The notes beneath the pieces were generated by a model that was not told the origin of the DNA, did no database searches, and saw nothing but the letters and a program-made list of their open reading frames with translations. Of a stretch of 64,000 nucleotides of DNA, positions 11,250 through 34,170 are shown one piece after another; position 1 is the stretch's first letter, and every line of letters starts with the position of its first letter. The translations under genes and the position numbers were made by a program. This DNA is from a virus, in IMG/VR virus record IMGVR_UViG_3300042311_000920, positions 1 to 64,000 of that record. One strand, 5' to 3'.

Positions 11250-11525
11250 ATGAAAAACGCAGAATTAATGAATTTATCAATCGAAGAATTGAGAGATTTA
11301 AACACAAGACTTATTGAAGTCTTGAAACTTAAAAAACAAACTATTGCTTTTGTTAATAAGGAAACACTAACAAAAGGAATGATTGCTGAATATGTAGGAA
11401 CTTCTACTAATGTTCGGTATAAAGAGTTTGAGATTGTAAAAATCAATAGAACGAAAGCTGAGTGTAAGTGTGTGGTAACTGGTAAACTTTGGAATATCCA
11501 AATAGCAAACTTAAAACCATCATAG
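11250..11525 (+). CDS. Hypothetical protein
   Basis: 91-aa ORF. Confidence 0.55.
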   Translation: MKNAELMNLSIEELRDLNTRLIEVLKLKKQTIAFVNKETLTKGMIAEYVGTSTNVRYKEFEIVKINRTKAECKCVVTGKLWNIQIANLKPS

Positions 11526-11539
11526 TTAATTTTTATTTT

Positions 11540-11872
11540 ATGGACACAGCGACCAAACCCCAAGCCATTCAGTACAGTTTGGCTTTTTTTGACCCTCCAG
11601 ACGCTCCGGACCGTGATCAAATTTTAACAAGCAAAGCCAACGCATTGCTCGAAGCTCTCAACGACGGACTAAAAACGAAAGATCACTATTTACCACAATA
11701 CACTTATCAAGAAGGAAATTTTATTATGCTAATCGCTTGCAACAAAGAAAAAGATATTATGCATAATATTCTGGACGTGGACGGAAATACACCGCCCGGA
11801 ATGTCCGCTTGTTGGAGAAATGCGTCACAAATCAAGCAAGATTTAAAAGAATTACAAATGCTTAACACCTAA
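11540..11872 (+). CDS. Hypothetical protein
   Basis: ORF, start moved to the ATG at 11540. Confidence 0.5.
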   Translation: MDTATKPQAIQYSLAFFDPPDAPDRDQILTSKANALLEALNDGLKTKDHYLPQYTYQEGNFIMLIACNKEKDIMHNILDVDGNTPPGMSACWRNASQIKQDLKELQMLNT

Positions 11873-11974
11873 ACCATGAAACGAATCATTTTAGAAAAGC
11901 CGATTATCATCGAGGCACGTTACGAAACTTATTTTCAAATCAATTTTTATTTAAACTAATCATTTTTTACAATC

Positions 11975-12430
11975 ATGAAAAAACTTTTTTTATTACTGTT
12001 ATTGCCTACTTTGGCAATTTCTCAAAACGTTGGAATCGGAACGAAAAACCCAACGGCTAAACTAGAAGTTAATGGAAACGTAAAACTAAAAGCGTCAATA
12101 GGTACGGTAAACGATACTATTTTAGTTATTCGAAATGGCGAAATAATGAAAGTGCCTGCATCTTTTTATCAATACACACCGCCTACAAATTGCCCCTTAC
12201 TCGTTACGGGTCAAGGTCAAAGTAATGGTTACTATTTGAAATTTCAATCAAACGTCCCAATTGTTAACCCAAGCGCTACACTCGTAATTCAGGGCAAAAC
12301 TTTTCAAGCAGCGGGAACGTGGGTAAGTAGCAATACCTACTTCTACTCTTACACTAATACGAGTGGTTCTCCTTTAAATATTAACCAGCCTTTTACCGTT
12401 AATTTTACGGGGCAAATTTGTCAGTATTAA
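11975..12430 (+). CDS. Secreted protein with a Bacteroidota VGIGT-type motif
   Basis: Signal peptide, then QNVGIGTKNPTAKLEVNG. Its TAA is the TAAC at which cassette array 1 begins. Confidence 0.65.
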   Translation: MKKLFLLLLLPTLAISQNVGIGTKNPTAKLEVNGNVKLKASIGTVNDTILVIRNGEIMKVPASFYQYTPPTNCPLLVTGQGQSNGYYLKFQSNVPIVNPSATLVIQGKTFQAAGTWVSSNTYFYSYTNTSGSPLNINQPFTVNFTGQICQY

Positions 12431-12557
12431 CAGCAAAGTATATAAGCAGTAGCGGAGTGAGTAGCACAGCACGTAAGAGGGAAGGCTGGAATTTCAAATG
12501 TGCATTGTCATTTCGGTATAACCAAGCCCCGCCCGCTATTTCTTATATTTATTGTTA
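12428..12557 (+). repeat. att-like hairpin site 1
   Basis: TAAC..TATAAGCAGTAGCGG / CCGCTATTTCTTATA..TGTTA. Confidence 0.65.
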
Positions 12558-12645
12558 TAAAATCCTTTTAATGTTTTACAACGTTTGGTGCTTTCTGTCT
12601 GTAGCGGATTTCAGCACCAAGCCATTAAAACACAAAACCAAAATT

Positions 12646-12873
12646 ATGGAATCACTTGAAAAATTTATAGAAAAAAGAATGCAACAATCGGAATTTTCAG
12701 CAATGATGATCCCTAGATATTTAGAAAAGCCAAATGCTTTTTTAGGTTCAAAAAATTACACTTTGGAAAAAGCGGCAGAATTTAAAGCAGATGCTGAGAA
12801 ATGCAAAGCATTAATGATGTTTTTAAAAGAATATAATAAACTTTTGAAAACCAAGCGTAACAATGGAAACTAA
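12646..12873 (+). CDS. Cassette hypothetical protein
   Basis: MESLEKFIEK..., TAA overlaps the next TAAC. Confidence 0.55.
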   Translation: MESLEKFIEKRMQQSEFSAMMIPRYLEKPNAFLGSKNYTLEKAAEFKADAEKCKALMMFLKEYNKLLKTKRNNGN

Positions 12874-12986
12874 CGTTGAATTATTGTCGTCAGGTGGCGA
12901 CAAACACAAAACAAAATATAAAAATGAAAGTAATGACAAAACATTCAGAGAATACCCAAACCGCCACTTGCGACAATAATTTGTTA
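12871..12986 (+). repeat. att-like hairpin site
   Basis: TAAC GTTG AATTATTGTCGTCAGGTGGCG / CGCCACTTGCGACAATAATT TGTTA. Confidence 0.8.
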
Positions 12987-13256
12987 GTAGATTATCATCC
13001 TTTTGACCTTAAGCCTCAACATAGAGATTTAGGAGGAAAAATACCTTTTGTTCATAATAAGACAGGTTTTACAGAATTGTATCCAAAAGCTTATAGTTAT
13101 CCGGCCAAAAGATGCGAAAATTGCTTGTTTTATAGAGTAGAGAGAAGTACTACTCCTGTTGCTTACTATTGTCGAATTGGTATGTTTTCAAGTTATGTAC
13201 AGGCAACCGCAAAAAGAGATGAAGACAAACCAACTGAATGTCAGGTTTATTGGTAA
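12924..13256 (+). CDS. Cassette hypothetical protein (CxxC)
   Basis: ATG inside the hairpin; cassette ends GTTAGTAGAT / ATCTACTAAC. Confidence 0.55.
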   Translation: MKVMTKHSENTQTATCDNNLLVDYHPFDLKPQHRDLGGKIPFVHNKTGFTELYPKAYSYPAKRCENCLFYRVERSTTPVAYYCRIGMFSSYVQATAKRDEDKPTECQVYW

Positions 13257-13263
13257 TATCTAC

Positions 13264-13390
13264 TAACGGATTGCGGTTTTGTCTTGTTGCCGAAAATACA
13301 AGACCAATTTTAATTTAAAAAACTATGAATACAAGTACAAAAAATTCATCAAATGAAGCCGAAAATGGCAATAAGTCAAAACCGCTGTTA
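13264..13390 (+). repeat. att-like hairpin site
   Basis: TAAC GGATT GCGGTTTTGTCTTGTTGCC / GGCAATAAGTCAAAACCGC T GTTA. Confidence 0.85.
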
Positions 13391-13558
13391 TATGATGGCA
13401 TTTTCGTAGGGCAGAAAGTTATTGATGAAGATTGCGATAAAGGAACGATAACAGAAATAGAAAATATCTACAATGTTTATGTAAAATATGATAATGGCGG
13501 AAGTGGTATTTCTTGTTTAAATGGTTGTTGCAACGACAGGTTGTATGCTATCATATAA
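13325..13558 (+). CDS. Cassette hypothetical protein
   Basis: ATG inside the hairpin; cassette ends GTTATATGATGGCAT / ATGCTATCATATAAC. Confidence 0.55.
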   Translation: MNTSTKNSSNEAENGNKSKPLLYDGIFVGQKVIDEDCDKGTITEIENIYNVYVKYDNGGSGISCLNGCCNDRLYAII

Positions 13559-13643
13559 CGTTTTCGGGCTTGGCGAAGTGCCGCTAACCGAAACTTAATT
13601 TTTAGCACTAACTGTCCTGCGGCATTTTGCCAAACCCGTGTTA
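13556..13643 (+). repeat. att-like hairpin site
   Basis: TAAC GTTTT CGGGCTTGGCGAAGTGCCGC / GCGGCATTTTGCCAAACCCG T GTTA. Confidence 0.85.
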
Positions 13644-13694
13644 TGGGATAGTTTTAAAAACCTTTTAGGGTGGGCATTTAAAAACAAAATTAAA

Positions 13695-14090
13695 ATGGGA
13701 ATGTACACAGAATTAATTTTTGGTGCTGAATTAAAAAAAGACACACCAAACCAAGTAATTGAAGCCTTGAAATATATGATAGGTGAAACAAAAGAAAAGC
13801 CAAGTGATTTCCCGTTACCTGATGGAAGATGTGAATGGTTATTTCAAGGCGGTAGCTATTACTTCGCTATCAATAATTCAGTAACAAAAATGTGGCTTGA
13901 TGATATTGATAAGCAATGGCATATTAGCACACGTTCAAATATTAAGAATTACGAAAGTGAAATTGAAACATTTTTAGACTGGATAAAGCCATACATTGAC
14001 GGTGGTTCTGGTGGTAGAGATTTATATGCCATTACCATTTATGAAGAACAAGACACACCAACTCTTTATTATTTGCACGATGCTGATTAG
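13695..14090 (+). CDS. Cassette hypothetical protein
   Basis: MGMYTELIFG..., flanked by a terminal inverted repeat of about 26 bp. Confidence 0.65.
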   Translation: MGMYTELIFGAELKKDTPNQVIEALKYMIGETKEKPSDFPLPDGRCEWLFQGGSYYFAINNSVTKMWLDDIDKQWHISTRSNIKNYESEIETFLDWIKPYIDGGSGGRDLYAITIYEEQDTPTLYYLHDAD

Positions 14091-14126
14091 TACGGTGCGG
14101 TGGGAAAAGGTTTTTAAAATTTCCCA

Positions 14127-14194
14127 TAACGTTTTGCAGATACACGCTGTGAGCGTTGAATTGAGGGAGGGGAAATAGCGTGTATCTGCTGTTA
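14127..14194 (+). repeat. att-like hairpin site
   Basis: TAAC GTTTT GCAGATACACGCT / AGCGTGTATCTGC T GTTA. Confidence 0.85.
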
Positions 14195-14234
14195 TGCCTT
14201 CGTTGCGGATTATTAACTTAAAAACTAAAATATA

Positions 14235-14561
14235 ATGGATAAATTTCCAAAATTCATCATAGAAGATGATAAATTAATACTAATGAAAGTAACATATCAT
14301 AAAGAGATTGCTACTGATTTAACTAAAGTAAAAGGCGGTGGTTGGTTTAAATATTTGCAACATACCGATATGTTTGTTTTTAGCGGAGAAAGCCACGATT
14401 TTGGCAAAGCTAAATTTGAAGATATAAAACAATGTGTTGCAAATTGCCAAGTATATTCAGATAACCGCCTTTACCGAAATATCAGTAATAATCACAATTT
14501 TGGATATGATACAGGAACAGAAATTATCGAATTGAAAACGGAATGTAGCAATGAGGCATAA
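14235..14561 (+). CDS. Cassette hypothetical protein
   Basis: Cassette ends GTTATGCCT / AGGCATAAC. Confidence 0.65.
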   Translation: MDKFPKFIIEDDKLILMKVTYHKEIATDLTKVKGGGWFKYLQHTDMFVFSGESHDFGKAKFEDIKQCVANCQVYSDNRLYRNISNNHNFGYDTGTEIIELKTECSNEA

Positions 14562-14686
14562 CGTTTTGCAGCTATATGTCTGTTGCCAAAAGTAAAAAAC
14601 AATGCTTCGATTAAGCACAAATAATCACAAGTACAAAACAAATTATAAATCAAGCCGAATGTGGCAATAAGTCAAAACCGCTGTTA
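14559..14686 (+). repeat. att-like hairpin site with mismatched (chimeric) arms
   Basis: Left arm GCAGCTATATGTCTGTTGCC, right arm GGCAATAAGTCAAAACCGC. Confidence 0.7.
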
Positions 14687-14700
14687 TAAGTAGTACGGAT

Positions 14701-14841
14701 ATGAAAATCACAAAAGAATTTTTAGAAAAAATAAAAAAAGAAAACAATATATTGATATTTAAACTAGCGTCGATTGAGGGTAAAATACCAAAAGAAATAC
14801 AAGACACATTACCTAAAGAAGTAATTACAAACAGATTGTAG
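14701..14841 (+). CDS. Cassette small protein (46 aa)
   Basis: MKITKEFLEKIKKENNILIF... fills the unit GTTATAAGTAGTAC / GTATTACTTATAAC. Confidence 0.5.
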   Translation: MKITKEFLEKIKKENNILIFKLASIEGKIPKEIQDTLPKEVITNRL

Positions 14842-14850
14842 TATTACTTA

Positions 14851-14942
14851 TAACGTTTTGCAGGTAGGCGATAGTGCCGCTTACCACAAACTTTAAATCA
14901 AAGCACTCAGGCTCATAGCGGCATTTTGCCTACCTGCTGTTA
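14851..14942 (+). repeat. att-like hairpin site
   Basis: TAAC GTTTT GCAGGTAGGCGATAGTGCCGCT / AGCGGCATTTTGCCTACCTGC T GTTA. Confidence 0.85.
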
Positions 14943-14996
14943 GGTGTCTGTAAAAAATAAATTTAGCGTGGGCTTAAACTTTAAATAACAAACAAA

Positions 14997-15482
14997 ATGG
15001 AATTACAAGAATTAATTGAAAAGAACAAACTGCAATTACGCACACAAGAAGATATTTCTGCAAAGTTTGACGAATTGCAAAATTCAGGTGGCTTTATGGA
15101 TTTTCGACCAGAAGTATTGATTAACTTTTTATCATTTGAAAACGCAAAGCCACATTTGAAAGAAGACTACGTGAAAGAAGTTGAAGCAGGAACAAAGCAA
15201 TGGGAGCAACATACTACGGTTGAAAAGGCTGCCGAAGAGTTTTTGGACTATATGAAATTTGCTTGGGGTAAAGCCGAAGATGAACGTGGAATTTCAGCAA
15301 GCCGTTCAGTTCAAAAACTAGGAATGTGGCTTTGGATTATGAACCGAGATGATTTGCGTAGAGTTATTGAGGATGATGATTTGTACAATCCTTATGGCGC
15401 ACCTGCTTTAATTGAAGTTTGCAATCAAATGGGTATAAAAGTTCCAAACTCATTAATCGAATTTGCTAAGATAAAATGCTAA
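14997..15482 (+). CDS. Cassette hypothetical protein
   Basis: 161 aa; cassette ends GTTAGGTG / CACCTAAC. Confidence 0.65.
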   Translation: MELQELIEKNKLQLRTQEDISAKFDELQNSGGFMDFRPEVLINFLSFENAKPHLKEDYVKEVEAGTKQWEQHTTVEKAAEEFLDYMKFAWGKAEDERGISASRSVQKLGMWLWIMNRDDLRRVIEDDDLYNPYGAPALIEVCNQMGIKVPNSLIEFAKIKC

Positions 15483-15522
15483 TTATGTTGGGTGCGGTGG
15501 GAAATTTATTTTTTATTGCACC

Positions 15523-15649
15523 TAACATTCTCGTGGCTTTGTCTTGTTGCCGAAAATACAAGACCAACTTTAAATTTATCACTATGAAAAATGACACAAA
15601 ACCAGCATTACCCGAAGCCGAAAACGGCAATAAGTCAAAACCACTGTTA
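15523..15649 (+). repeat. att-like hairpin site (same family as 13264)
   Basis: GTGGCTTTGTCTTGTTGCCG / CGGCAATAAGTCAAAACCAC T GTTA. Confidence 0.85.
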
Positions 15650-16021
15650 CAAGCAGTGTTTTTCGCTCCTTATTTGCCTTATTCGGTAAAAATAGCTTAT
15701 GATTATTTTGGAGATACACAAGAAATAGCAACATTAATAGGTGTTGAAGATAGAAATGGAGAAACTAGATTGCAAATTAATACTGGCGGAAGTGCTTTGT
15801 TAAAATATTGCAAACTTGTTTTAAAACCTTTTTCAGATTATACTGAAATATTAGAAATAACAGATGAAATGAATGATTATGAAATCCAAATGATTGAAGA
15901 TAATCCTGATTTAATAAAACGACTACCTTATGATGTGGTTGAAAAAATGTTTAAAAATCACATTGATGTTTTCGGACTTATTAATTTCGGTTTAGCCGTT
16001 TCAATTCACGATGTTGTGTAA
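15584..16021 (+). CDS. Cassette hypothetical phage protein
   Basis: ATG inside the hairpin; cassette ends GTTACAAGCAGTGTT / AACATTGCTTGTAAC. Confidence 0.6.
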   Translation: MKNDTKPALPEAENGNKSKPLLQAVFFAPYLPYSVKIAYDYFGDTQEIATLIGVEDRNGETRLQINTGGSALLKYCKLVLKPFSDYTEILEITDEMNDYEIQMIEDNPDLIKRLPYDVVEKMFKNHIDVFGLINFGLAVSIHDVV

Positions 16022-16030
16022 CATTGCTTG

Positions 16031-16159
16031 TAACGTTCCGCAACTACACGTCTGTTGCGTAAAAGTACAAAATTACCTTTCAGTTTAACACGGAATTGAA
16101 AGGTACAAAAACATCACTAAATTAATCACAAATCTAGCAATAGCGTGTAATTGCTGTTA
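16031..16159 (+). repeat. att-like hairpin site
   Basis: GCAACTACACGTCTGTTGC / GCAATAGCGTGTAATTGC T GTTA. Confidence 0.8.
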
Positions 16160-16174
16160 TCAAATCGGTTTATT

Positions 16175-16501
16175 ATGAAAAGATTACCTGTTATACACGA
16201 TGTAAAAGTTTGGAGTAGATTTTGGCAAAATCTAACTATCGAAGAAAAAAACTTTGAATTAAGAAAATTAGATAGAGATTATCAAGTAAATGATTATTTA
16301 CGATTGAATTTCTATTCAGAAGATTTAAAAGAAATTATAGAAACTGAAAAGCCTAAAATTGCTAAAATTCAATACATTTTAAAAGATGCTGAAATGTTTG
16401 GATTGCAAAAAGATTACGGAATATTATCCTTAAAATATTATAGTTCTTTTTCTTTTCAAGAAAGGGTAGAGTTTTTGAAAACGCAAACCCAAACTGTTTG
16501 A
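16175..16501 (+). CDS. Cassette DUF3850/ASCH-like protein
   Basis: HDVK...KNFELRKLDRDYQVNDYLRL motif. Confidence 0.7.
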   Translation: MKRLPVIHDVKVWSRFWQNLTIEEKNFELRKLDRDYQVNDYLRLNFYSEDLKEIIETEKPKIAKIQYILKDAEMFGLQKDYGILSLKYYSSFSFQERVEFLKTQTQTV

Positions 16502-16627
16502 TAACGGCTACGCATATACGCAGTAGCGGATTTAAAACACAAAAGTTTAATTAACAAATAAAAGTAAAATAGAATGAAAAAGTTTAAAATTAGCACAGTA
16601 GCCGCTATTGCCGTATATGCGATGTTA
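16502..16627 (+). repeat. att-like hairpin site
   Basis: CGCATATACGCAGTAGCGG / CCGCTATTGCCGTATATGCG AT GTTA. Confidence 0.85.
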
Positions 16628-16915
16628 GCGGTTGTTTTTACTTCTTGTGATGATGCAGGGGTAACTTCAAAAAGATTAAATGGCGATGAACAAAATTTGC
16701 CTGATGAACTGAAAGGACTAAAAATTTATTCAGTTTCGACAGGTAATGGGAATTATGTAAAAGTTGCCGTTTTAGACGGTAAGATAAACTCAACAACTTA
16801 CCAAGTAGGTAAAGTTCAAGAATCGACAGTAATAGTAAATAAACAAAACGGCAAACTTATAGAGGTTAGCCAAATTTTGGTTGAAAACGACAGCGTGATT
16901 GTCTGCCGAAAATAA
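16574..16915 (+). CDS. Cassette lipoprotein
   Basis: MKKFKISTVAAIAVYAMLAVVFTSC lipoprotein signal. Confidence 0.65.
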   Translation: MKKFKISTVAAIAVYAMLAVVFTSCDDAGVTSKRLNGDEQNLPDELKGLKIYSVSTGNGNYVKVAVLDGKINSTTYQVGKVQESTVIVNKQNGKLIEVSQILVENDSVIVCRK

Positions 16916-16919
16916 CCGC

Positions 16920-17038
16920 TAACGGTTCTCGGCTTTGTCGTCGTTGCGACTTATGAAAACTAATATTAATATTTTAAACTAAACGAAATGAAAAACGATA
17001 ATTCAACTAAACAAAGCAATGCGTCAAAACCGATGTTA
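16920..17038 (+). repeat. att-like hairpin site
   Basis: TCGGCTTTGTCGTCGTTGC / GCAATGCGTCAAAACCGA T GTTA. Confidence 0.8.
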
Positions 17039-17272
17039 GCGGAAGGCTGGATTTCTGTTAACGATAGAAGACCAAATGAAAATCAAACAGTATGGTGTTA
17101 TTCAGAAAACACATTTAACATATTTGTAGGAGTTTATATTTACCTTACAAATGAAGGTTGGTTTTGGGCTTCAAGTAACGGTTGCTTTTATATTGAAGAG
17201 GGAAAAATAATAACAGAATGTGAGATTGATGATTTTGATGTTACACATTGGTTTCCCGCTCCAGTTCTGTAG
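16988..17272 (+). CDS. Cassette DUF551-like protein
   Basis: WISVNDRRP...VTHW motif; ATG inside the hairpin. Confidence 0.7.
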   Translation: MKNDNSTKQSNASKPMLAEGWISVNDRRPNENQTVWCYSENTFNIFVGVYIYLTNEGWFWASSNGCFYIEEGKIITECEIDDFDVTHWFPAPVL

Positions 17273-17280
17273 CTTTCCGC

Positions 17281-17407
17281 TAACGTTTCTCGGCTTTGCT
17301 TTGTTGCGGAAAAGTAAGCCAAAACTTTAGATTTAAAAACAAAATTAACAAATACAAACCAAACATTCAGTTAAGCCTAAAACCGCAATAGAGCAAAACC
17401 GATGTTA
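17281..17407 (+). repeat. att-like hairpin site
   Basis: TCGGCTTTGCTTTGTTGCGG / CCGCAATAGAGCAAAACCGA T GTTA. Confidence 0.85.
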
Positions 17408-17499
17408 TAAGTAGCTTTTATTATGGATGAAATAATTTTATGTTTAGGAATGATTGTTGGATTAATATTATTTATAATTAGTATAAAACAAGAGTAAAA

Positions 17500-17772
17500 A
17501 TGGAAAGTAAAATAGAATATTTTAATAGATACAGTGATACGCATTTGCCTGATAAAATGAATAGATGGGCAAGAATAGCTGTATTTAAAAACATTAGAAT
17601 TGCTTGGATAAGTAAACATAAGATTAAAGAGCAAGATACATTTTGTGTAACGTGCCATTTTCCAACTATGCAAAATGATACAGCAAACGAAAGTAAAGTT
17701 TTCTTTAGTTTAGAAGATGCAAAAGATTTTGTTTCTGAAAGATGGAATTTTTTTTTAACCGCAGTTTCTTAA
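17500..17772 (+). CDS. Cassette hypothetical protein
   Basis: 90 aa, preceded in the same unit by a 24-codon hydrophobic ORF at 17423-17497. Confidence 0.6.
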   Translation: MESKIEYFNRYSDTHLPDKMNRWARIAVFKNIRIAWISKHKIKEQDTFCVTCHFPTMQNDTANESKVFFSLEDAKDFVSERWNFFLTAVS

Positions 17773-17781
17773 AGTTACTTA

Positions 17782-17854
17782 TAACGTTCCCACGATAGGG
17801 GCTGTTTGCCTATTTACAAAGTTGCTTTCGGCAAATAGCACTTATCGTGTGTTG
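17782..17854 (+). repeat. att-like hairpin site
   Basis: CACGATAGGGGCTGTTTGCC / GGCAAATAGCACTTATCGTG T GTTG. Confidence 0.85.
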
Positions 17855-17903
17855 TGCGATGGTGCTTTTAAATACAAATATTAACCAATTAAATTACAAT
17901 AAA

Positions 17904-18119
17904 ATGTCAAAACGAAAATACTCAAAAATGTCGGACAAAGTTGAAATAACACATTATGAATGTACTAATAGAAAGTGCAAGTGGCAAGGAACTAATAAAC
18001 AAAAAGGAACTCAATATTTAGATAATGGATTTACGGAATTGATTTGCCCTAAATGCTGTAATAATGAATTTTACGGATTACTTCCGTCTTATGTAGATTC
18101 TATTTCTGCGGTTTCGTAG
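17904..18119 (+). CDS. Cassette zinc-ribbon-like protein
   Basis: CxxxxC...CPKC; cassette ends GTTGTGCGA / TCGCACAAC. Confidence 0.55.
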   Translation: MSKRKYSKMSDKVEITHYECTNRKCKWQGTNKQKGTQYLDNGFTELICPKCCNNEFYGLLPSYVDSISAVS

Positions 18120-18128
18120 CATCTCGCA

Positions 18129-18254
18129 CAACGTATCGGTGCTATACGATGTGGCGGATTTTCGGCAGAAAGCCCAATACGAAGCACCACAGTTGAATTA
18201 AATAAAAATGTTTAATCGAAGCACGTCAGCCGCCATATTGTATAGCACTTGTTA
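18129..18254 (+). repeat. att-like hairpin site
   Basis: CAAC GTATC GGTGCTATACGATGTGGCGG / CCGCCATATTGTATAGCACT T GTTA. Confidence 0.85.
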
Positions 18255-18285
18255 GCGGATGCCGTTTCTTCACAACAATTTTAAA

Positions 18286-18522
18286 ATGGAATATAAAGCA
18301 CAAGAACTCAAAAAAGATTTAATAACAAAGCGTTGCATTGATAACGATATGACAATGGATGAAGCCTGTAAAGAAATAGGAATTTCAAAAGCCACTTTGT
18401 CAAGGTTGGAAAAGTCTAAACTGCCAGATGTTGAAACATTAGGTAAGGTTTGCACTTGGTTAGGAACTGAACCAAATAAATACTTTGTCATTATTCGTAA
18501 GCGTCAAGACGGTTTCCGCTAA
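18286..18522 (+). CDS. Cassette XRE-family HTH regulator
   Basis: TMDEACKEIGISKATLSRLEK...PDVETL. Confidence 0.8.
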   Translation: MEYKAQELKKDLITKRCIDNDMTMDEACKEIGISKATLSRLEKSKLPDVETLGKVCTWLGTEPNKYFVIIRKRQDGFR

Positions 18523-18644
18523 CCGTTCGGGGCTTGTAGCAGTAGGGGATTAGAAGCACTACTGTTCAACCTACCACAAAAGCTGATTAGAAGTACACAG
18601 CTTAATTAAAGCACTTCTGCCCCTATTGCTACAAACCCTTGTTA
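18520..18644 (+). repeat. att-like hairpin site
   Basis: GGGCTTGTAGCAGTAGGGG / CCCCTATTGCTACAAACCC TT GTTA. Confidence 0.85.
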
Positions 18645-18694
18645 GCAGAAGTGGCGGTTAATTTACAAGGGTGTCAATTTTAAAACGTAAAAAA

Positions 18695-18997
18695 ATGATT
18701 AAAAATTCAGAACAACCAATCAGTCCAATGCCTTACCAAAATCAAGATGGCTCTATTCAACACGATGTTTATTTTGGATTAACTAAAAGAGAACATATTG
18801 CTATTGAAGCAATGAAGGGCTTTTTAGCAAACCCATCTGAAACAGAAGTAAGTTCAACTTATGTATTGGAAGCAATCGGGTTGCCAAAAGAAACTAAGTA
18901 TTCATTTGATGAGCATTACACAAAGTATGTTTCACAAATAGCAGTCAAATATGCCGATGCCTTATTAAAGGAATTGTCAATCGGAGACGGTCGGTAG
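18695..18997 (+). CDS. Cassette hypothetical phage protein
   Basis: GLTKREHIAIEAMKG...AVKYADALLKEL, a motif common in phage proteins. Confidence 0.65.
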   Translation: MIKNSEQPISPMPYQNQDGSIQHDVYFGLTKREHIAIEAMKGFLANPSETEVSSTYVLEAIGLPKETKYSFDEHYTKYVSQIAVKYADALLKELSIGDGR

Positions 18998-19007
18998 CCA
19001 TTTCTGC

Positions 19008-19131
19008 TAACGGCTACGGCTATGTGCAGTAGCGGATTTAAAACACTAAACTTTAAATATAGAACGAATGATGATAGTAGAACAAATTTTGAATAACGCA
19101 CCGAACCCGCTATTGCATATAGCCGATGTTA
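19008..19131 (+). repeat. att-like hairpin site
   Basis: CGGCTATGTGCAGTAGCGG / CCGCTATTGCATATAGCCG AT GTTA. Confidence 0.85.
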
Positions 19132-19859
19132 GTGGCGGTGCTTTGTTCAATGCTGATTGTATGGATATTTTACCTCTTATTCCTAATAAATCGGTTCAAC
19201 TTATTTTGGCTGATTTGCCTTACGGAACAACAAGTTGTGCGTGGGATTGTATTATTCCATTTGACAAACTTTGGGCTGAATATGGTAGAATAATAAAAGA
19301 CAATGGTGCAATAGTTTTAACGGCTTCACAACCATTTACAAGTGCCTTAGTAAACAGTAAAATTGAATGGTTTAAATATGCTTTAGTTTGGGAAAAAGAA
19401 AGACCAAGCAACCCTGCACACGCAAAGATTAGATTTATGAAATGGCACGAAGATATTTTGATTTTTTCACCTAATAAAGAAAAGTTTAATCCACAAAAAG
19501 AAAAACGATTAGAGCAAAATAAAAGGAATAACAAACAAGGTGTATTTCATAAATCTGATGCTTATGGAGAACAAACAATACCACAAGGCGATGGGATGGC
19601 TGATGAAAAGTATTTGAGTAGCATATTAAAGGTAAATGTTGAAAGAGGGTTGCACCCAACGCAAAAGCCGTTAAAACTATTTAAAACATTGATTAGTGCC
19701 TTTACGGATGAAAATGATTATGTACTTGATAATACAATGGGAGTAGGCACAACTTGTTTAGGAGCAAAAGAGTTGAACCGTTCCTTTATTGGAATTGAAA
19801 AAGAGGTAAAATATTATGATTTGGCAGTTGGTCGGGTGTTCGGTCAGCATTGCCACTAA
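19068..19859 (+). CDS. Cassette beta-class N6A/N4C DNA methyltransferase
   Basis: DLPY, HPTQKP and DNTMGVGTT motifs. Confidence 0.9.
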   Translation: MMIVEQILNNAPNPLLHIADVSGGALFNADCMDILPLIPNKSVQLILADLPYGTTSCAWDCIIPFDKLWAEYGRIIKDNGAIVLTASQPFTSALVNSKIEWFKYALVWEKERPSNPAHAKIRFMKWHEDILIFSPNKEKFNPQKEKRLEQNKRNNKQGVFHKSDAYGEQTIPQGDGMADEKYLSSILKVNVERGLHPTQKPLKLFKTLISAFTDENDYVLDNTMGVGTTCLGAKELNRSFIGIEKEVKYYDLAVGRVFGQHCH

Positions 19860-19943
19860 CGGTTTCGGGCTTGGCGAAGGTGGGCTTGTAGGATGCTCAA
19901 TTTTAGCAGAATGTTTCTGCCCACTTTTGCCAAACCCGTGTTA
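19857..19943 (+). repeat. att-like hairpin site
   Basis: CGGGCTTGGCGAAGGTGGGC / GCCCACTTTTGCCAAACCCG T GTTA. Confidence 0.85.
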
Positions 19944-20013
19944 TGTGTAGTTGCGGTTGTTTATCAGGAACTTAAATTGAAAACGAATAAAAAAGAATTA
20001 GAAAAAAGAAGCG

Positions 20014-20715
20014 ATGGAATTAAATAAAATATATAACGAAGATTGCATTGAAGGTATGAAGAAAATACCATCTGCGAGTATTGATATGGTTCTAACTGAC
20101 CCACCATATACATCTCCAACTGTTCACGCATTCGGAAGGCAAAAAGTAAACCGATTATCAGATTTAGCAATACAAGAATTTTACTTTGCTGAAATCAAAA
20201 AGGAATGGGAACGAATACTGAAACCCAATGCACCTGTTTTGATTTTCTGCGATGATATTTATAGTGCTGTTTTGATGGGTTTGTTTTACGAATGGCAACA
20301 AAAGAATTTAGTTATTTGGGATAAGGGTAGAATTGGAATGGGAAACCCGTTTAGAAAACAGCACGAACTTGTATTTTATGCAAACAGAGGAAGTATTGAA
20401 TTGAATAAAACCAATATGAGCCACATTCCTACTGTAATAAAAGAAACGCTAACAAAAGAACATCACGGAGCAGAAAAGCCAGTAAAACTATTGATGAAAC
20501 TGATTGACGGACTTACAAAAGAAAATGCAACAGTTTTGGATTGCTTTATGGGAAGTGGCTCAACTGCGATTGCTTGTTTAGAAACGAAAAGAAACTATAT
20601 CGGTTTTGAACTTGATAAAAGCTATTATGAAACTTCACAAAATCGTATTTCTTCCTTGTGCGGTGGGCTTTTTTCTAATTCTTTTTCAACGGAAAGTTCA
20701 ATTGAAACGGGATGA
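20014..20715 (+). CDS. Cassette beta-class N6A/N4C DNA methyltransferase
   Basis: DPPY, HGAEKP and DCFMGSGST motifs. Confidence 0.9.
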   Translation: MELNKIYNEDCIEGMKKIPSASIDMVLTDPPYTSPTVHAFGRQKVNRLSDLAIQEFYFAEIKKEWERILKPNAPVLIFCDDIYSAVLMGLFYEWQQKNLVIWDKGRIGMGNPFRKQHELVFYANRGSIELNKTNMSHIPTVIKETLTKEHHGAEKPVKLLMKLIDGLTKENATVLDCFMGSGSTAIACLETKRNYIGFELDKSYYETSQNRISSLCGGLFSNSFSTESSIETG

Positions 20716-20728
20716 TAGCAATTACACA

Positions 20729-20777
20729 TAACGTTTTGCAGATTGGCGGTCGTTTTAATGCCGCCAATGTGCTGTTA
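20729..20777 (+). repeat. Minimal att-like hairpin site (49 bp)
   Basis: TAAC GTTTT GCAGATTGGCGG / CCGCCAATGTGC T GTTA. Confidence 0.8.
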
Positions 20778-20839
20778 CAGGTAGTAGGGATTTCTACCAC
20801 AAAACTTAATTAGAAGTACAAACAAAAAAGAATTTAAAA

Positions 20840-21715
20840 ATGAGCGAGGGCAAAAAAAGAAAAATTAAAGTATTATCATTATTCGATGGTATGAGTTGCG
20901 GACAAATAGCTTTAAACAAGCAAGGGATTGAATATGATGAATATTTTGCTTCTGAAATTGACAAAGAAGCTATAAAGGTAACTATGAAAAACTACCCAAA
21001 CACAAAACAATTAGGTAGTATTACGGAACTAAAAGGAATTGATTTGCCAAAAATAGATTTGCTATTTGGCGGAAGCCCTTGTCAAAGTTTTAGTAGAGCA
21101 GGAGATAACAGTGGATTTGACGGAAGTAGTAAATTGTTTTGGGAATTTGTAAGAGTTTTGAATGAAGTAGAACCTACTTACTTTTTACTTGAAAATGTAA
21201 TTATGAAAAAAGAATGGGAAGATGTAATTACGGAAGCGTTAGGAGTGAAACCTATTGAGATTACAAGTGCTAAATTTGTACCACAAGCAAGACGAAGATT
21301 ATATTGGACTAATATACCCAATGTAACGCAACCGAAACAATCTGAATACACTGTTTTAGACTTTATTGATGGTGATGGGTTTCCGACAAGTTGCGGAATT
21401 GATAGAGTTTTTAAACGCAAAGAAATATTTAATACTTTGACGGCAACTTATTGGAAAGGAATTAGAGGAAGTTCAAGACCAGCAGTAAGTATTAGAGAAG
21501 GATTTTTAGATGCGGACAGAGAAGCACACCGTATGCTAACACCAACAGAATGTGAACGACTACAAACAGTACCTATTGGATATACGGATTGTGTTGCTAA
21601 AACAAATAGATATAAGATGCTTGGTAATGGTTGGACAGTTGATGTGATTGCTCATATTTTTTCTTTTTTAAAGGAGGGGAAATTTTTAAATTCTTTTTCT
21701 GACGAAAATGTTTAA
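20840..21715 (+). CDS. Cassette C5-cytosine DNA methyltransferase
   Basis: LFDGMSCG, GGSPCQSFS, ENV, QARRRLYW, ECERLQ and LGNGW motifs. Confidence 0.9.
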   Translation: MSEGKKRKIKVLSLFDGMSCGQIALNKQGIEYDEYFASEIDKEAIKVTMKNYPNTKQLGSITELKGIDLPKIDLLFGGSPCQSFSRAGDNSGFDGSSKLFWEFVRVLNEVEPTYFLLENVIMKKEWEDVITEALGVKPIEITSAKFVPQARRRLYWTNIPNVTQPKQSEYTVLDFIDGDGFPTSCGIDRVFKRKEIFNTLTATYWKGIRGSSRPAVSIREGFLDADREAHRMLTPTECERLQTVPIGYTDCVAKTNRYKMLGNGWTVDVIAHIFSFLKEGKFLNSFSDENV

Positions 21716-21741
21716 TCAAAGCACTTCACCGCTATTACCTG

Positions 21742-21861
21742 TAACGGTTCTCGGCTTGGCGAAGTTGCCGAACACAAAACTTCATTAGAATTACAAATGT
21801 TTAAATCAAAGATAGAATGTCAAACGAAGCACAAAACGGCAATTTTGCCAAACCGATGTTA
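21742..21861 (+). repeat. att-like hairpin site
   Basis: TCGGCTTGGCGAAGTTGCCG / CGGCAATTTTGCCAAACCGA T GTTA. Confidence 0.85.
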
Positions 21862-22461
21862 GCACCAGTACGGGTTTTAAATCTATACGCTGGAATTGGA
21901 GGAAACCGAAAACATTGGGAAAATGTAGAAGTAACTGCAATAGAATACAACGAAGAAATTGCAAATGTTTACAAGAAATTACATCCAAACGATAATGTGA
22001 TAGTTACTGATGCACACGATTATTTGGCTAAAAATTGGAGAGAGTTTGATTTTATATGGAGTTCGCCACCATGTCAAAGTCATAGCAAAGTAAGAATGAT
22101 GGCAAGTAAAAGCGGAAGTTATGATGCTGTAATGCCTGATATGAAATTGTGGAGTGAAATAATTTTTTTACAGAACTTTACTAAAAACACAGATATAAAG
22201 TTTGTAGTTGAAAATGTAAAGCCTTATTACGAACCATTTGTAAAACCAACTGCAAAACTTGGTAGGCATTTATTTTGGGCAAACTTTGAAATACCTGAAG
22301 CCGAAATAAAAGATGGATTAACCCACAATGAAAGAGGAAGTTCTGAAAAAGGTTATTTTGACTTACGAGAATATAAAATAAAACACAGAAAAGACCAAAT
22401 AATTCGTAATTGCGTTGACCCAAATGTAGGACAATATGTTCTCGGTTGTGCAGTTTCGTAG
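21817..22461 (+). CDS. Cassette short C5-methyltransferase-like protein
   Basis: LYAGIGG, SPPCQ and ENV motifs; ATG inside the hairpin. Confidence 0.8.
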   Translation: MSNEAQNGNFAKPMLAPVRVLNLYAGIGGNRKHWENVEVTAIEYNEEIANVYKKLHPNDNVIVTDAHDYLAKNWREFDFIWSSPPCQSHSKVRMMASKSGSYDAVMPDMKLWSEIIFLQNFTKNTDIKFVVENVKPYYEPFVKPTAKLGRHLFWANFEIPEAEIKDGLTHNERGSSEKGYFDLREYKIKHRKDQIIRNCVDPNVGQYVLGCAVS

Positions 22462-22470
22462 TATTGGTGC

Positions 22471-22494
22471 TAACTAATCGCTAATCGCTATAAA
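22471..22494. other. Conserved array-terminal site (attI-like candidate)
   Basis: TAACTAATCGCTAATCGCTATAAA, 20/24 identical to 34783-34806. Confidence 0.6.
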
Positions 22495-22505
22495 ACCAAA
22501 TCAAA

Positions 22506-22730
22506 ATGAATACAATATCAGTAAGTTATGATTTGAAATGGCAAATAAAAAGTAATGAAAAATACAAGTGGACAACTTGCAAGAAACTTTTCAACACTCA
22601 AACAGGTCGCCAAATAAAAAAGACAATGAATTGCAGAAGTATTGGCTACTGGATAGGAAAACAATTTGTCACTTTGGAAAATTTAAAAAATCAACTAGAA
22701 TTAATCCCAAAAGAAAATACACCTTTTTAA
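22506..22730 (+). CDS. Hypothetical basic protein
   Basis: 74-aa ORF directly after the array-terminal site. Confidence 0.55.
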   Translation: MNTISVSYDLKWQIKSNEKYKWTTCKKLFNTQTGRQIKKTMNCRSIGYWIGKQFVTLENLKNQLELIPKENTPF

Positions 22731-22731
22731 A

Positions 22732-23190
22732 ATGAAAAAAATATTATTTTTGCTGTTAGTTGCTGGAGTAACGACAGCGCAGTACAACAATAAAATCAAC
22801 TTCAATCTATTAGTTGATAAAACCGCTCATATGGTTGCAGAAATCGAGGGAATTGAAGGTAAGATGTATCTTAAACAATCTTTAGAATTTGCCCCAAACA
22901 TCCAAGGAGGATATTTAGCAACCGGAACATCTGTTGGATTCAGTACCGAATTAGGAATGTTTCAACAGTACCGACTATACACAGCCCCGAAGCTTCAATT
23001 TATTTCAAGAGGCGGGAATGTTTATCCTTCCGCCGGATTTGAATTAGGAATTGATAAAACTTTTGATTCAGGTTTAATTATTGGAGTTCGCGGTACCTAT
23101 GACTACCGTAGCGATTTTGAGTATTGGGATAAATACGCATCCGAATGGAGACCGTCAGGATTTATTAAAATCGGGTGGAGAATAAGATAA
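22732..23190 (+). CDS. Putative small outer-membrane beta-barrel protein
   Basis: Signal peptide, alternating amphipathic strands, C-terminal FIKIGWRIR. Confidence 0.6.
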   Translation: MKKILFLLLVAGVTTAQYNNKINFNLLVDKTAHMVAEIEGIEGKMYLKQSLEFAPNIQGGYLATGTSVGFSTELGMFQQYRLYTAPKLQFISRGGNVYPSAGFELGIDKTFDSGLIIGVRGTYDYRSDFEYWDKYASEWRPSGFIKIGWRIR

Positions 23191-23205
23191 AATAAACTAA
23201 AAAAA

Positions 23206-23427
23206 ATGGCACAAAAAAAGACACTCTCAGAAGAGTTTGCAACATTCCTAAAAGAAAAACGAATGCGACTAGGAATGACACAAGCCCAACTTTCAGAATT
23301 AATTTACGGCGATCCTAAACGTGCCGAGTACATCGGACGAATCGAAAACGGTAAAAGAGAAATATCTGTTTCAACTATGGGGTTGATGCTTGAAAAAATG
23401 AACGCTTGGGTAGAATTTATTGAATAA
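23206..23427 (+). CDS. XRE-family HTH regulator
   Basis: LKEKRMRLGMTQAQLSE...IGRIENGKREIS. Confidence 0.8.
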   Translation: MAQKKTLSEEFATFLKEKRMRLGMTQAQLSELIYGDPKRAEYIGRIENGKREISVSTMGLMLEKMNAWVEFIE

Positions 23428-23471
23428 CTGTACAAAAATAAATAGTCGGGAAAACTATTAAAAACTAAAAT

Positions 23472-31446: not shown

Positions 31447-31626
31447 ATGACAACTTACGGACAAATAGTTGACGGTAAAAGAATAACACTAAATGACTTT
31501 GAAAAACAAGTTCGAGAAGGCGTTTCTGGCATCGTAACTAACCTAACATCAGCGGAAATAGCCAAACGTTACCGTAAAGGCGAATCCGTGGATAATGCAG
31601 TGAGTTATTTTATAATGCACAAGTAA
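31447..31626 (+). CDS. Small hypothetical protein (59 aa)
   Basis: MTTYGQIVDGKR...; its TAA is the TAAC at which array 2 begins. Confidence 0.5.
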   Translation: MTTYGQIVDGKRITLNDFEKQVREGVSGIVTNLTSAEIAKRYRKGESVDNAVSYFIMHK

Positions 31627-31704
31627 CGTCCTGTGGCTTTGTCTAGTGGCGTTGAATTAAGACTAGACACAACAAAAATACACTAATTATTAAATTTAAA
31701 AATT

Positions 31705-32025
31705 ATGATTTCAGATAACACCCAATCCAAGCCATTAAACAAAACGACTGTTAGCGGTTCGGTTACTGACAATATGACCTTTAAAGACGCTTTAAAGTCA
31801 TTAGGAATAGAAGATTATGCTGAACGGATTTTTAATAGTAATTCACACGGAGAATTATTTCATATTCAACAGTATTTTACTTTAGCAAAGGTTCTAAAAG
31901 GAAATTCAGAGTGGTTTAGAGAATGGTTTGAAAAAGTTGTGAAATGGGCAGAAGAAAATTGGGAACGACCAGAATCAATTTTCCAACACATTAGTCAAAT
32001 TTTAGTAGATAGTCGTTCTAACTGA
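31705..32025 (+). CDS. Cassette hypothetical protein
   Basis: ATG inside hairpin 31624-31753. Confidence 0.6.
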   Translation: MISDNTQSKPLNKTTVSGSVTDNMTFKDALKSLGIEDYAERIFNSNSHGELFHIQQYFTLAKVLKGNSEWFREWFEKVVKWAEENWERPESIFQHISQILVDSRSN

Positions 32026-32031
32026 CGGCTA

Positions 32032-32148: not shown

Positions 32149-32313
32149 CATTACCACTAACGTTTTGCAACTTGCATTAGTGCCTTGCAAACAAGCGAGT
32201 AGTTTCGGATTAAGACTAAACACAACAAAGAAAAACAAAATATAAATTAATAACCAAGCCAAAGGCATTGATGCAAATTGCTGTTATCACTTCGGCTTTT
32301 TATTCCAAAAAAT

Positions 32314-32556: not shown

Positions 32557-32717
32557 TAACGTTTCCACGCTTGGCGAAGGTGGCGATTTTAACCACAAAT
32601 ACTGATGCGTAGAACGAAATTTGAATATAGCAATAATTGTCAAGCGGAGTACTGCACCGCCACTTTTGCCAAACGTGTGTTATGCGTTCGGCTTTTTTGG
32701 AACTTAAAAATTTGATT

Positions 32718-33107: not shown

Positions 33108-33120
33108 CGTTGTAAGCTGA
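32929..33120 (+). CDS. Small zinc-finger-like protein overlapping the previous ORF
   Basis: ITCLTCNKTSYNPNDIKHLYCGCCHRFH. Confidence 0.5.
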   Translation: MNLKKLLTKEQTPAKKGYVFTKHQKTNQQGITCLTCNKTSYNPNDIKHLYCGCCHRFHDSVVS

Positions 33121-33187
33121 CGCATAACGTTTCGCGGCTACACGAGGTTTGGGACTAAATTAGCAATAATTTTTAAATTTAATACAA

Positions 33188-34021
33188 ATGATAGAGATAC
33201 AAAACCAACTTGAAATTAAGCCTGAAACGGCAATAGCACAAAACCGATGTTACCAGCAGTGTTTTTTGTCGGACAATTTGGATTTAATGAAAACAATAGA
33301 AAGCAATACCATTGATTTGATTTACTGCGATATTCTTTACGGAACTGGCAGAAACTTTAGCGACTACCAAGACTTAAAACCGATTAGAAGTGAAATTGAA
33401 GCACATTATTTACCACGATTAAAAGAAATGTATCGAATACTAAAACCAACAGGGAGTATTTATTTACAAATGGATACAAGAATAAACCATTGGATGCGAA
33501 TTTTAATGGATGATATTTTTGGCTATGATAGAATGTTGAATGAAATTGTAGTTTGTATTAGTAAAGGAAATCAAACAAACAAACACTTTGCAAAAAGGCA
33601 CGATATTTTACTTTATTACACAAAAACAAAAGAATGGATTTATAATTTAGATGCTGTTTCAAAAGAAAATCCTGAACATAAAAGGTATAAATACCAAGAT
33701 GAAAAAGGAATGTATAGATGGCATATTGAAAGCATCAAAGATTATAAAATGTATCTTAAAAAACAAAATATAAACGATGTTTGGAGTGATGTAGGAATTG
33801 TTCAAGGCAACTCAATAGAAAATACAGGTTATTCTACACAAAAACCAAAATCATTGATTGAACGAATTATAAAAGCAAGTAGTAACGAAGGAGATTTAGT
33901 TGCTGATTTCTATGCTGGAAGTTTTACAACAGCAGTGGTTTGTAAAGAACTAAATAGGAATTTTATCGGATGCGATATTAATCCTTTGGCTTTGGAGATT
34001 TCAAAACAACGATTGGCTTAA
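33188..34021 (+). CDS. Cassette beta-class DNA methyltransferase (DILY variant)
   Basis: IDLIYCDILY, YSTQKP and DFYAGSFTT motifs. Confidence 0.85.
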   Translation: MIEIQNQLEIKPETAIAQNRCYQQCFLSDNLDLMKTIESNTIDLIYCDILYGTGRNFSDYQDLKPIRSEIEAHYLPRLKEMYRILKPTGSIYLQMDTRINHWMRILMDDIFGYDRMLNEIVVCISKGNQTNKHFAKRHDILLYYTKTKEWIYNLDAVSKENPEHKRYKYQDEKGMYRWHIESIKDYKMYLKKQNINDVWSDVGIVQGNSIENTGYSTQKPKSLIERIIKASSNEGDLVADFYAGSFTTAVVCKELNRNFIGCDINPLALEISKQRLA

Positions 34022-34170
34022 CATTGCTGGTAACGTTTGTGGCTTTGCTTAGTGGCTGAAAAGCAAGCCTAAATTATTGAATTAAAAACAAATTTTACAA
34101 ACACAAAACAGTGTTGAAATTTTGCCCGAAACAGCCATTGAGCAAAACCACTGTTATAAACAGGCTTTTT

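Follow-up and report, generated by a model that had tools for sequence, protein, structure and literature searches.

In integrons, each gene stands upstream of its own attC site and the bottom strand, which is the recombining strand, is antisense to the cassette genes. Canonical attC sites combine an R-box pairing of 7 bp with extrahelical bases and a roughly symmetric central spacer, and integron integrases use an IntI-specific insert to read the folded attC. Sedentary chromosomal integrons, such as the Vibrio superintegron, hold long arrays of homogeneous sites. CTX phage is integrated as folded single-stranded DNA (ssDNA) in a Xer-mediated reaction, and IS200/IS605 elements undergo single-strand transposition. 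To our knowledge, integrons are nearly absent from Bacteroidota and rare in phages. Here, we describe a phage from lake water in which about two dozen small accessory genes are held as cassettes with attC-like DNA hairpins between them. Its genome is the IMG/VR record IMGVR_UViG_3300042311_000920 (73,439 bp, rated complete in IMG/VR), of which a 64 kb stretch, positions 1 to 64,000, is called the window. With a probability of about 0.72, the array is an integron-like cassette store built on attC-like hairpins of a system that is widespread in Flavobacterium and phages.

In the accessible part of the IntegronFinder 2.0 survey of RefSeq complete genomes, no Flavobacterium integron is named and the complete integrons of Bacteroidetes are those of Salinibacter only. 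According to the available sections of Qi et al. 2023 (PMC9892861), a screen of 10,705 phage genomes gave three complete integrons and 17 CALINs (clusters of at least two attC sites with no integrase nearby). One CALIN, in Polaribacter phage P12002L, consists of two attC sites, read as divergent, and two methyltransferases, and P12002L_attC2 was recombined into attI1 by IntI1. The main text, as far as it was available, mentions neither Flavobacterium nor, for P12002L, a link to a host system, a mirror orientation or a cassette unit. In T4-type phages, the promoter-early stem-loops (PeSLs) flank non-essential genes in hyperplastic regions and are associated with modular shuffling and mini-circles, as described in the available part of PMC2839356. 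Nilsson et al. 2020 (PMC7077304) tied plating efficiency on different hosts to a variable methyltransferase; hairpins are not mentioned in the portion that was accessible. Our literature search, whose coverage excluded subscription journals, returned no account of the present system other than PMC9892861.

Between 12.4 and 22.5 kb, a site of 47-128 nt lies between each plus-strand gene and the next. On this strand, a site starts with (T/C)AAC and ~5 unpaired nt, continues with an arm of 12-20 bp, an A-rich loop and the second arm, and ends with 1 nt and GTT. In the full order, a cassette-specific repeat precedes TAAC, the ~5 nt, an arm of ~20 bp, the loop, the second arm, 1 nt and GTTA, and is followed by the repeat of the next cassette. 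This grammar had been proposed in an initial annotation made from the letters alone and was read directly in the window sequence, as was the co-variation of a GTTG ending with a CAAC start (17853/18130). A covariance model trained on 17 window sites, termed R1, was run with filters off over positions 11500-23500. It gave 19 plus-strand matches (E <= 1.2e-6) at 19 of the 20 starts that had been annotated; the remaining one, already labelled partial and placed at 12579, reached only 13.4 bits (E 0.12). Scores were 114-133 bits on the plus strand compared to 11.6-14.6 bits on the minus strand at the same places. R1 also revealed a second group of five plus-strand sites at 31.6-34.2 kb, with AAC starts at 31625, 32159, 32558, 33126 and 34032, and no site beyond the two groups over the whole 73,439-bp genome. 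With 24 R1 sites and no recombinase of the array-linked family described below, the genome would count as a CALIN by our own model; the published definition of the term uses IntegronFinder calls.

A set of 63 distinct sites, taken from the window and from seven related phages, was used to analyze the site structure, with 500 shuffles for comparison. Paired cells amounted to 95.1% compared to 71.1% in the shuffles, none of which reached the observed value, and compensatory changes were present in 14 of 16 arm pairs. AAC and GTT were invariant in 63/63 sites and one arm position was a G:T pair in 62 of them. The remaining wobbles were biased towards G:T/T:G (35) over A:C/C:A (13), which indicates that the modelled strand is the folding strand, antisense to the genes in bacteria and sense in phages. 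When the plus strand was folded as ssDNA, z values of -2.2 or lower were obtained for 16 of the 19 window sites, one of which (at 16031) adopts a different fold. The plus strand would be the one that folds as single-stranded DNA. Like integron attC, the sites have an inverted AAC...GTT core and fold imperfectly into hairpins of 47-128 nt whose unpaired features are asymmetric between the strands. They differ by an uneven spacer (~5 nt compared to 0-1 nt on the opposite side), by an R-box pairing of 9-19 bp and by a fixed G:T pair that replaces the extrahelical bases; neither the symmetric central spacer nor the extrahelical bases of canonical attC were found in them, fixed G:T pairs and 1x1 mismatches being present instead.

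In 9 of the 24 window sites, the loop contains the start codon of the downstream gene and the 3' arm provides its first codons. Several unrelated cassette proteins (open reading frames, ORFs, starting at 13325, 15584, 16988 and 21817) have N-terminal leaders that are encoded by the site and resemble each other, ..N(G)N.(S/A)KP(L/M)L, and in six of the nine such genes the reading frame places the G of GTT at the third codon position.

The flanks of the sites were compared for their ability to pair. The 3' flank of one site and the 5' flank of the next one pair over a median of 11 nt beyond GTT/AAC (at least 9 nt in 16 of 23 cases), whereas the median is 1.5 nt for the two flanks of a same site (at least 9 nt in 2/24) and 2 nt for non-adjacent flanks (at least 9 nt in 20/553). 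Position 8 of the terminal repeat is a G:T pair in 14 of the 23 window cassettes. In chromosomal arrays of Flavobacterium, adjacent flanks pair over a median of ~14 nt compared to 1 nt within a site, and the G:T position is shared. Each gene segment therefore carries its own inverted ends, as had been proposed from the letters, and these ends are joined to shared AAC/GTT cores. As in integrons, the repeat following GTT is part of the next cassette, whose own end it pairs with. Cassette ends complementary to each other and not across one site are the signature left by core crossover in integron arrays. Between site 1 and the partial site, at 12553-12582, stands an 'empty cassette' of 27-30 nt, GTTATAAAA...TTTTACAAC, with no space for a gene.

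Cassette mobility was assessed in relatives of the Flavobacterium phage vB_FspS_snusmum9-1, whose array has the same architecture as that of the window. Its array is matched in pieces by 46 records at 90-100% identity (35 at >=99%), and seven near-identical Flavobacterium phages were compared among them. Firstly, these phages, 97-100% identical over their shared parts, differ by whole cassettes, which indicates that exchange is recent there. Secondly, 90 of the 134 ends of homology blocks inside both arrays fall within 8 nt of the AAC/G start of a site, compared to 7 at GTT and 37 elsewhere, several of the latter being a few bases inside similar arms. Thirdly, 26 of 28 site clusters kept a single downstream gene segment, while clusters s5, s8, s9 and s14 were each found with 3-4 different upstream segments; the methyltransferase unit s8-O8 follows four different segments and precedes four different sites or the array end. 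Since site clusters keep the downstream segment and change the upstream one, the mobile unit is the hairpin plus the downstream gene, bounded at AAC/G, and such units are gained, lost and reordered at the AAC border. A unit of this composition implies a cut at the 5' AAC of the folding strand. Copies of window cassettes were also present in unrelated viral contigs, and the homology ended no more than 3 nt from AAC at 12431, 19008, 19861 and 34035. Assembled contigs from four DNA runs (X3-X6) were also examined, joints with sides <30 nt not being counted; one metagenome contig joins 13554 to 14558, a clean deletion of two cassettes with 10 nt common at the joint. In run X5, contigs break at site borders and pieces on different cassettes have depths from ~8 to 123, as if cassettes sat in several genomes at different abundance.

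A gapped pattern was used to scan bacterial genomes, as fixed IUPAC patterns recovered few sites. It gave 111 stretches compared to ~2 expected, mostly in Flavobacterium. R1 sites are present in 85 of 121 Flavobacterium genomes and the family occurs in at least 117 viral stretches, a distribution that standard tools appear to miss. In Flavobacterium, R1 arrays reach 14 sites in 8 kb and, in one genome, more than 35 sites in 21.6 kb, with several arrays per genome and cassettes encoding diverse proteins mostly of unknown function. Ten short site-bearing contigs are found in bins of other taxa named Paraperlucidibaca, Neisseriaceae, Bifidobacterium, Erysipelotrichaceae and Saccharibacteria (loci L053, L054, L062, L066, L079, L083, L094, L100, L109 and L118); they are probably mis-binned phage or Flavobacterium DNA.

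The orientation of ORFs relative to the site strand differs between the two settings. Around pattern matches in bacteria, ORFs are opposite to the site strand in 59 loci, mixed in 11 and on the same strand in 10 (n=80), whereas in viral loci they are on the same strand in 69, mixed in 11 and opposite in none (n=80). The layout of integrons is thus found in the bacterial arrays and not in the window or the other viral loci. Phage arrays are mirror-coded relative to chromosomal arrays: phage genes have the direction of the folding strand, which places each site upstream of its own gene.

The scan of bacteria and phages with site models also returned a Xer/IntI-like tyrosine recombinase linked to the arrays. 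This enzyme, 347-353 aa long with SAM_4 and Phage_integrase domains, adjoins an array in 14 Flavobacterium genomes, always at the 3' end in site orientation, and its gene is co-oriented with the cassette genes in 13 of them. In the fourteenth (G024:C1:885170-1088234), one-strand sites extend over ~200 kb beside a recombinase of 41% identity that is sense to the sites. The enzyme scores 214-221 bits on NF040815 ('tyrosine recombinase/integron integrase'), 186-198 bits on XerD and 203 bits on TIGR02249, below the cut-off of 265, and its nearest solved relatives are archaeal XerA. Alignment with VchIntIA is in two pieces and leaves 22 residues where VchIntIA has 64, which indicates that the IntI-specific insert is missing. 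Homologs are present in 74 of the 121 Flavobacterium genomes; 64 genomes have both recombinase and sites, 10 the recombinase only, 21 sites only and 26 neither (odds ratio 7.9, uncorrected for phylogeny). Relatives with 40-49% identity are encoded by 231 viral stretches. Among the best 80 of these, 42 carry arrays directly upstream of the recombinase gene; the 141 site matches there are all on the strand of this gene, and 140 of them precede it. Genes were co-oriented in 20/20 viral recombinase loci checked. In one of them (L339), the gene of a 267-aa recombinase starts ~45 nt after the TAAC that ends the last cassette.

The sense orientation of viral sites, seen in 69/80 loci with none opposite, would also be expected if the hairpins were RNA elements of the early transcript, such as processing stems or start-codon leaders, mosaicism then resulting from homologous or microhomology recombination at the borders as for PeSLs. 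Wobble pairs that favour the sense strand, start codons in loops, the 8-9 nt border sequence common to most sites and the virulent Muminvirus-type phages that have arrays and no recombinase all agree with this alternative, as do the shuffling and mini-circles documented for PeSLs in the accessible part of PMC2839356. However, sites are antisense to the genes in 59/80 bacterial loci, and as one site family serves genes of both orientations, a purely RNA-level function cannot be the common role. Physical linkage of the sites to a tyrosine recombinase, seen in 14 genomes and in 42 of the best 80 viral loci, and the occurrence of cassette-specific repeats with a fixed wobble position in chromosomal arrays as well, also speak against it. 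Sigma-70-like promoters were not in excess (37 compared to 46.0 +/- 6.7 in shuffles; Bacteroidota promoters were outside the scan), terminators numbered 4 compared to 6.4 +/- 2.3 with none at site arms, and no Rfam family matched the window at gathering score, a single snoRNA match being at chance level (E 0.036). An RNA-only role of the hairpins is unlikely, and we hold the whole alternative, with its homology-driven mosaicism, to be quite unlikely.

The window genome encodes a single tyrosine recombinase, its only PF00589 match, an arm-type integrase that has no significant similarity to the array-linked enzyme; in agreement with the initial annotation, no integron integrase with an IntI-specific domain was detected in the window. 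Catalysis of cassette exchange by this integrase might be suspected from its position ~1 kb past the last AAC and its co-orientation, as this is the place of the Xer-like recombinase in 42 of the best 80 viral loci. It nevertheless belongs to a different family (Arm-DNA-bind_5 + SAM_5), and the presence of a helix-turn-helix (HTH) regulator and an antirepressor close by is consistent with a lysogeny module. A pattern scan of IMG/VR for its relatives gave none, and tblastn gave three at 36-37% identity; in the two loci with available site positions (L176 and L206), they lie at the other end of the sites and are encoded on the other strand. The integrase probably serves lysogeny and not the array, and we regard its involvement in cassette exchange as highly improbable.

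Combined, these data lead us to regard the window array as a mirror-oriented form of an integron-like system, resembling a CALIN, whose enzyme would act in trans. In the mechanism we propose, the plus strand would fold as an ssDNA hairpin and a Xer/IntI-like tyrosine recombinase of the type adjoining such arrays would cut at the 5' AAC. One strand would be exchanged between two sites, by which a cassette circle would be excised or inserted, and in the excised circle both terminal repeats would lengthen the hairpin. As no enzyme of the linked family is encoded in the window, it would have to be supplied in trans by the host or a co-infecting phage, hence the CALIN-like character; its presence in 74/121 Flavobacterium genomes makes such a supply plausible. 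Excision, circular intermediates, cleavage at the 5' AAC and supply in trans are all inferred steps.

Several points weigh against this reading. The window genome has no recombinase of the array-linked family, and no tyrosine recombinase was found in five Muminvirus-type phages that have arrays. The linked recombinase itself lacks the insert by which IntI reads folded attC. The ssDNA fold of three of the 19 sites (12428, 14559 and 16920) is no better than that of shuffles. Some exchange occurs at the GTT border (two of 28 clusters with two downstream partners and 7 of 134 block ends), and the shared (A)TAACG(TT) could seed homology-driven exchange. Neither excised circles nor junction reads were seen in the metagenome runs, where assembled contigs only were available and most joints were short-sided. 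Finally, five structural relatives, identified through a 453-aa structural protein, have no sites, whereas 22 sites were recovered from the window genome as a positive control, and these relatives thus yield no cassette-by-cassette comparison for the window lineage.

A genome devoid of the cognate recombinase, one partial and three poorly folding sites and the mismatched arms of the site at 14560 are also what a fossil array would display, that is, one built by an integron-like system in an ancestor or donor, now inert and kept for its useful genes. Such inertia does not fit with the significant fold of 16/19 sites and terminal repeats of at least 9 nt in 16/23 cassettes, nor with the recent whole-cassette exchange among 97-100% identical phages and the two-cassette deletion variant of the window array in one metagenome. 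With a recombinase family so common in Flavobacterium that supply in trans is plausible, we consider a fossil array unlikely.

The integron analogy drawn in the initial annotation is borne out by the terminal-repeat signature, by unit exchange at AAC and by a site family shared with recombinase-adjoining chromosomal arrays, and the differences it listed, namely the uneven spacer, the extended terminal repeats, the location in a phage and the lack of intI in this genome, were all confirmed. The sites do not form an isolated new class, as a linked recombinase family exists elsewhere and they are attC-like sites of a Flavobacterium-wide integron-like system. As in integrons, the units mostly hold single genes and arrays adjoin a tyrosine recombinase in chromosomes, although not in the window. 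Unlike in integrons, the linked recombinase has no IntI insert, and phage genes run along the folding strand, so that a site stands in front of its gene and can provide the start codon. The Vibrio superintegron resembles the chromosomal arrays in its long runs of homogeneous ~124-nt sites and its diverse cargo of mostly unknown function; the host phylum, the recombinase type, the site geometry and the co-orientation of the recombinase with the cassette genes (13/14 genomes) are different. Repeated stem-loops flanking non-essential phage genes and modular shuffling are shared with PeSLs, which, in the part of PMC2839356 that was available, consist of a promoter and a terminator and recombine by homology; no promoter or terminator signal was found in the window, where the arms co-vary and are not conserved and each cassette has ends of its own, and the site family is linked to dedicated recombinases. 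The recognition of a DNA hairpin on a specific strand recalls CTX phage and IS200/IS605, the former also by its Xer-type tyrosine recombinase. Unlike for CTX phage, no dif-like paired binding sites were present in the window array, and, unlike for IS200/IS605, no Y1 HUH transposase (PF01797) was detected at E <= 10 in five records (the window genome and four Muminvirus-type phages); arrays of many different cassettes are not known from either system. As in the window, methyltransferase genes stand between predicted attC sites in the Flavobacteriaceae phage P12002L, according to the accessible part of PMC9892861. Read by eye apart from the published coordinates, its methyltransferase region shows, on the coding strand, the grammar of the window sites and the same kind of cassette-specific repeats; R1 gave one weak match (26 bits) on this genome because the hairpins are short there.

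We give even odds to a broader proposal, in which Flavobacterium, probably other Bacteroidota, and phages share a so far undescribed integron-like system with an insert-less Xer-like recombinase and attC-like hairpins characterized by the asymmetric spacer, long cassette-specific R boxes and fixed G:T pairs. Phages would run a mirror-image edition of it, in which the hairpin, on the sense strand, also provides the 5' leader, the start codon and the first codons of each cassette gene, and would use it for reshuffling anti-restriction methyltransferases in near-identical populations. Such a system would be a second way, shaped independently, to achieve structure-specific single-strand recombination, doing without the IntI insert and relying on another site geometry, and would bear on how structure-specific recombinases read folded DNA. 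Phage methyltransferase genes turn over fast, which Nilsson et al. linked to plating efficiency on different hosts, and the system would provide a concrete mechanism for this. In this proposal, the mirror orientation would mean that phage and host cassette pools share machinery and are not expressible in each other's arrays, a testable idea for how the gene pools are kept apart despite one recombination machinery.

Six cassettes of the window encode DNA methyltransferases: the first array contains two N6/N4 and two C5 enzymes, the second a single enzyme of either type. The remaining cargo consists of an HTH protein, a lipoprotein and small unknowns. The cassette at 19068 recurs in another viral contig (L165), where homology stops at both AAC borders. 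Such a cargo of methyltransferases and unknowns suggests that anti-restriction and other early accessory functions are rapidly reshuffled. The coordinates of sites and genes are collected in Table 1.

Table 1. Hairpin sites, cassette genes and neighbouring genes in the window (R1, covariance model of the sites)
Feature	Position	Strand	Basis
Site 1, AAC to GTT, degenerate	12429..12556	+	R1 60.9 bits; fold not better than shuffles
Partial site, 5' half and short hairpin only	12574..12697	+	R1 13.4 bits, E 0.12
Site 3, loop holds ATG 12924 of downstream ORF	12872..12985	+	R1, fold test
Site 4, ATG 13325 in loop, 3' arm codes ..NGNKSKPLL	13265..13389	+	R1 130 bits
Site 5, short loop	13557..13642	+	R1, fold test
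Site 6, 66 nt	14128..14193	+	R1 46 bits, filters off; z -5.6
Site 7, arms mismatched, hybrid or decayed in appearance	14560..14685	+	R1 105.6 bits; fold z -0.14
Site 8	14852..14941	+	R1, fold test
Site 9, ATG 15584 in loop	15524..15648	+	R1
Site 10, 90.6% identical to a vB_FspS_snusmum9-1 site preceding a different gene segment	16032..16158	+	R1
Site 11, ATG 16574 in loop, 3' arm codes lipoprotein-type signal peptide	16503..16626	+	R1
Site 12, ATG 16988 in loop, weak fold	16921..17037	+	R1, fold test, terminal repeats
Site 13	17282..17406	+	R1 133.1 bits
Site 14, 71 nt, ends GTTG co-varying with CAAC at 18130	17783..17853	+	R1, terminal repeats
Site 15, CAAC start	18130..18253	+	R1, fold test
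HTH_3 cassette protein	18259..18522	+	domain match
Site 16	18521..18643	+	R1, fold test
Site 17, loop holds methyltransferase ATG 19068	19009..19130	+	R1
N6/N4 DNA methyltransferase cassette gene	19068..19859	+	PF01555, 105 bits
Site 18	19858..19942	+	R1, fold test
N6/N4 DNA methyltransferase cassette gene	20014..20715	+	PF01555, 107 bits
Site 19, 47 nt, shortest	20730..20776	+	R1, fold test
C5 cytosine DNA methyltransferase cassette gene	20840..21715	+	PF00145, 138 bits
Site 20, ATG 21817 in loop	21743..21860	+	R1
Short C5 methyltransferase-like cassette gene	21817..22461	+	PF00145, 43.6 bits
Lone terminal AAC closing the last cassette	22472..22474	+	11-nt repeat beyond GTT with flank at 21860
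HTH_3 regulator adjoining the integrase	23206..23427	+	domain match
Arm-type integrase, sole tyrosine recombinase of the genome	23472..24770	+	Arm-DNA-bind_5 + SAM_5 + Phage_integrase
Second array, site A	31625..31752	+	R1
Second array, site B	32159..32285	+	R1
Second array, site C	32558..32681	+	R1
Second array, site D, loop holds methyltransferase ATG 33188	33126..33251	+	R1
N6/N4 methyltransferase, second array	33188-34021	+	starts in site D loop
Second array, site E, then C5 methyltransferase-like gene to 34785	34032..34155	+	R1

The lone AAC that closes the first array is a possible attI-like end. Arrays of Muminvirus phages end comparably, with TAAC followed by TA, and so does the array of L339, in which the recombinase gene comes next. 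Muminvirus-type arrays (L003-L009) share their first three to five units and vary most between isolates at the cassettes adjoining the lone terminal AAC, with five different last cassettes, which resembles turnover at an attI-like end. The 3' half of the site at 14560-14685 is approximately a copy of the 3' half of the site at 13265, including a degenerate N-terminal coding leader, while its 5' arm is unmatched; this site looks like a hybrid or dead one.

Neighbouring genes provided additional observations. A scan for tRNA and tmRNA gave none. Proteins common to the window and Muminvirus-type phages are limited to methyltransferases, NUMOD4-HNH endonucleases and DUF3127-like and holin-like proteins, with no dedicated recombinase among them; the endonucleases, two tandem genes at 35246-36561, are among the few that the window phage has in common with Muminvirus phages. 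Pfam gave no match for four ORFs of the structural region (49040-50482, 59898-60887, 60955-62316 and 62336-63409); this region also contains two very large minus-strand ORFs at 41537-49030 (2497 aa) and 52416-57464 (1682 aa). The second array, 31625-34785, sits among replication-region genes. The gene directly before site 1 (11964-12431) ends with TAAC and has 88% identical copies in two viral loci (L223 and L231), where it adjoins a homolog of window gene 34782-34990, located 23 kb away in the window. The DUF3560 gene at 9250-9894 has relatives, 60-78% identical, in 14 viral contigs that have nothing else in common with the window phage and no synteny with it. Four of these 14 loci carry a few sites and in one of them (L011) three sites lie directly 3' of the DUF3560 gene, which may be a former cassette.

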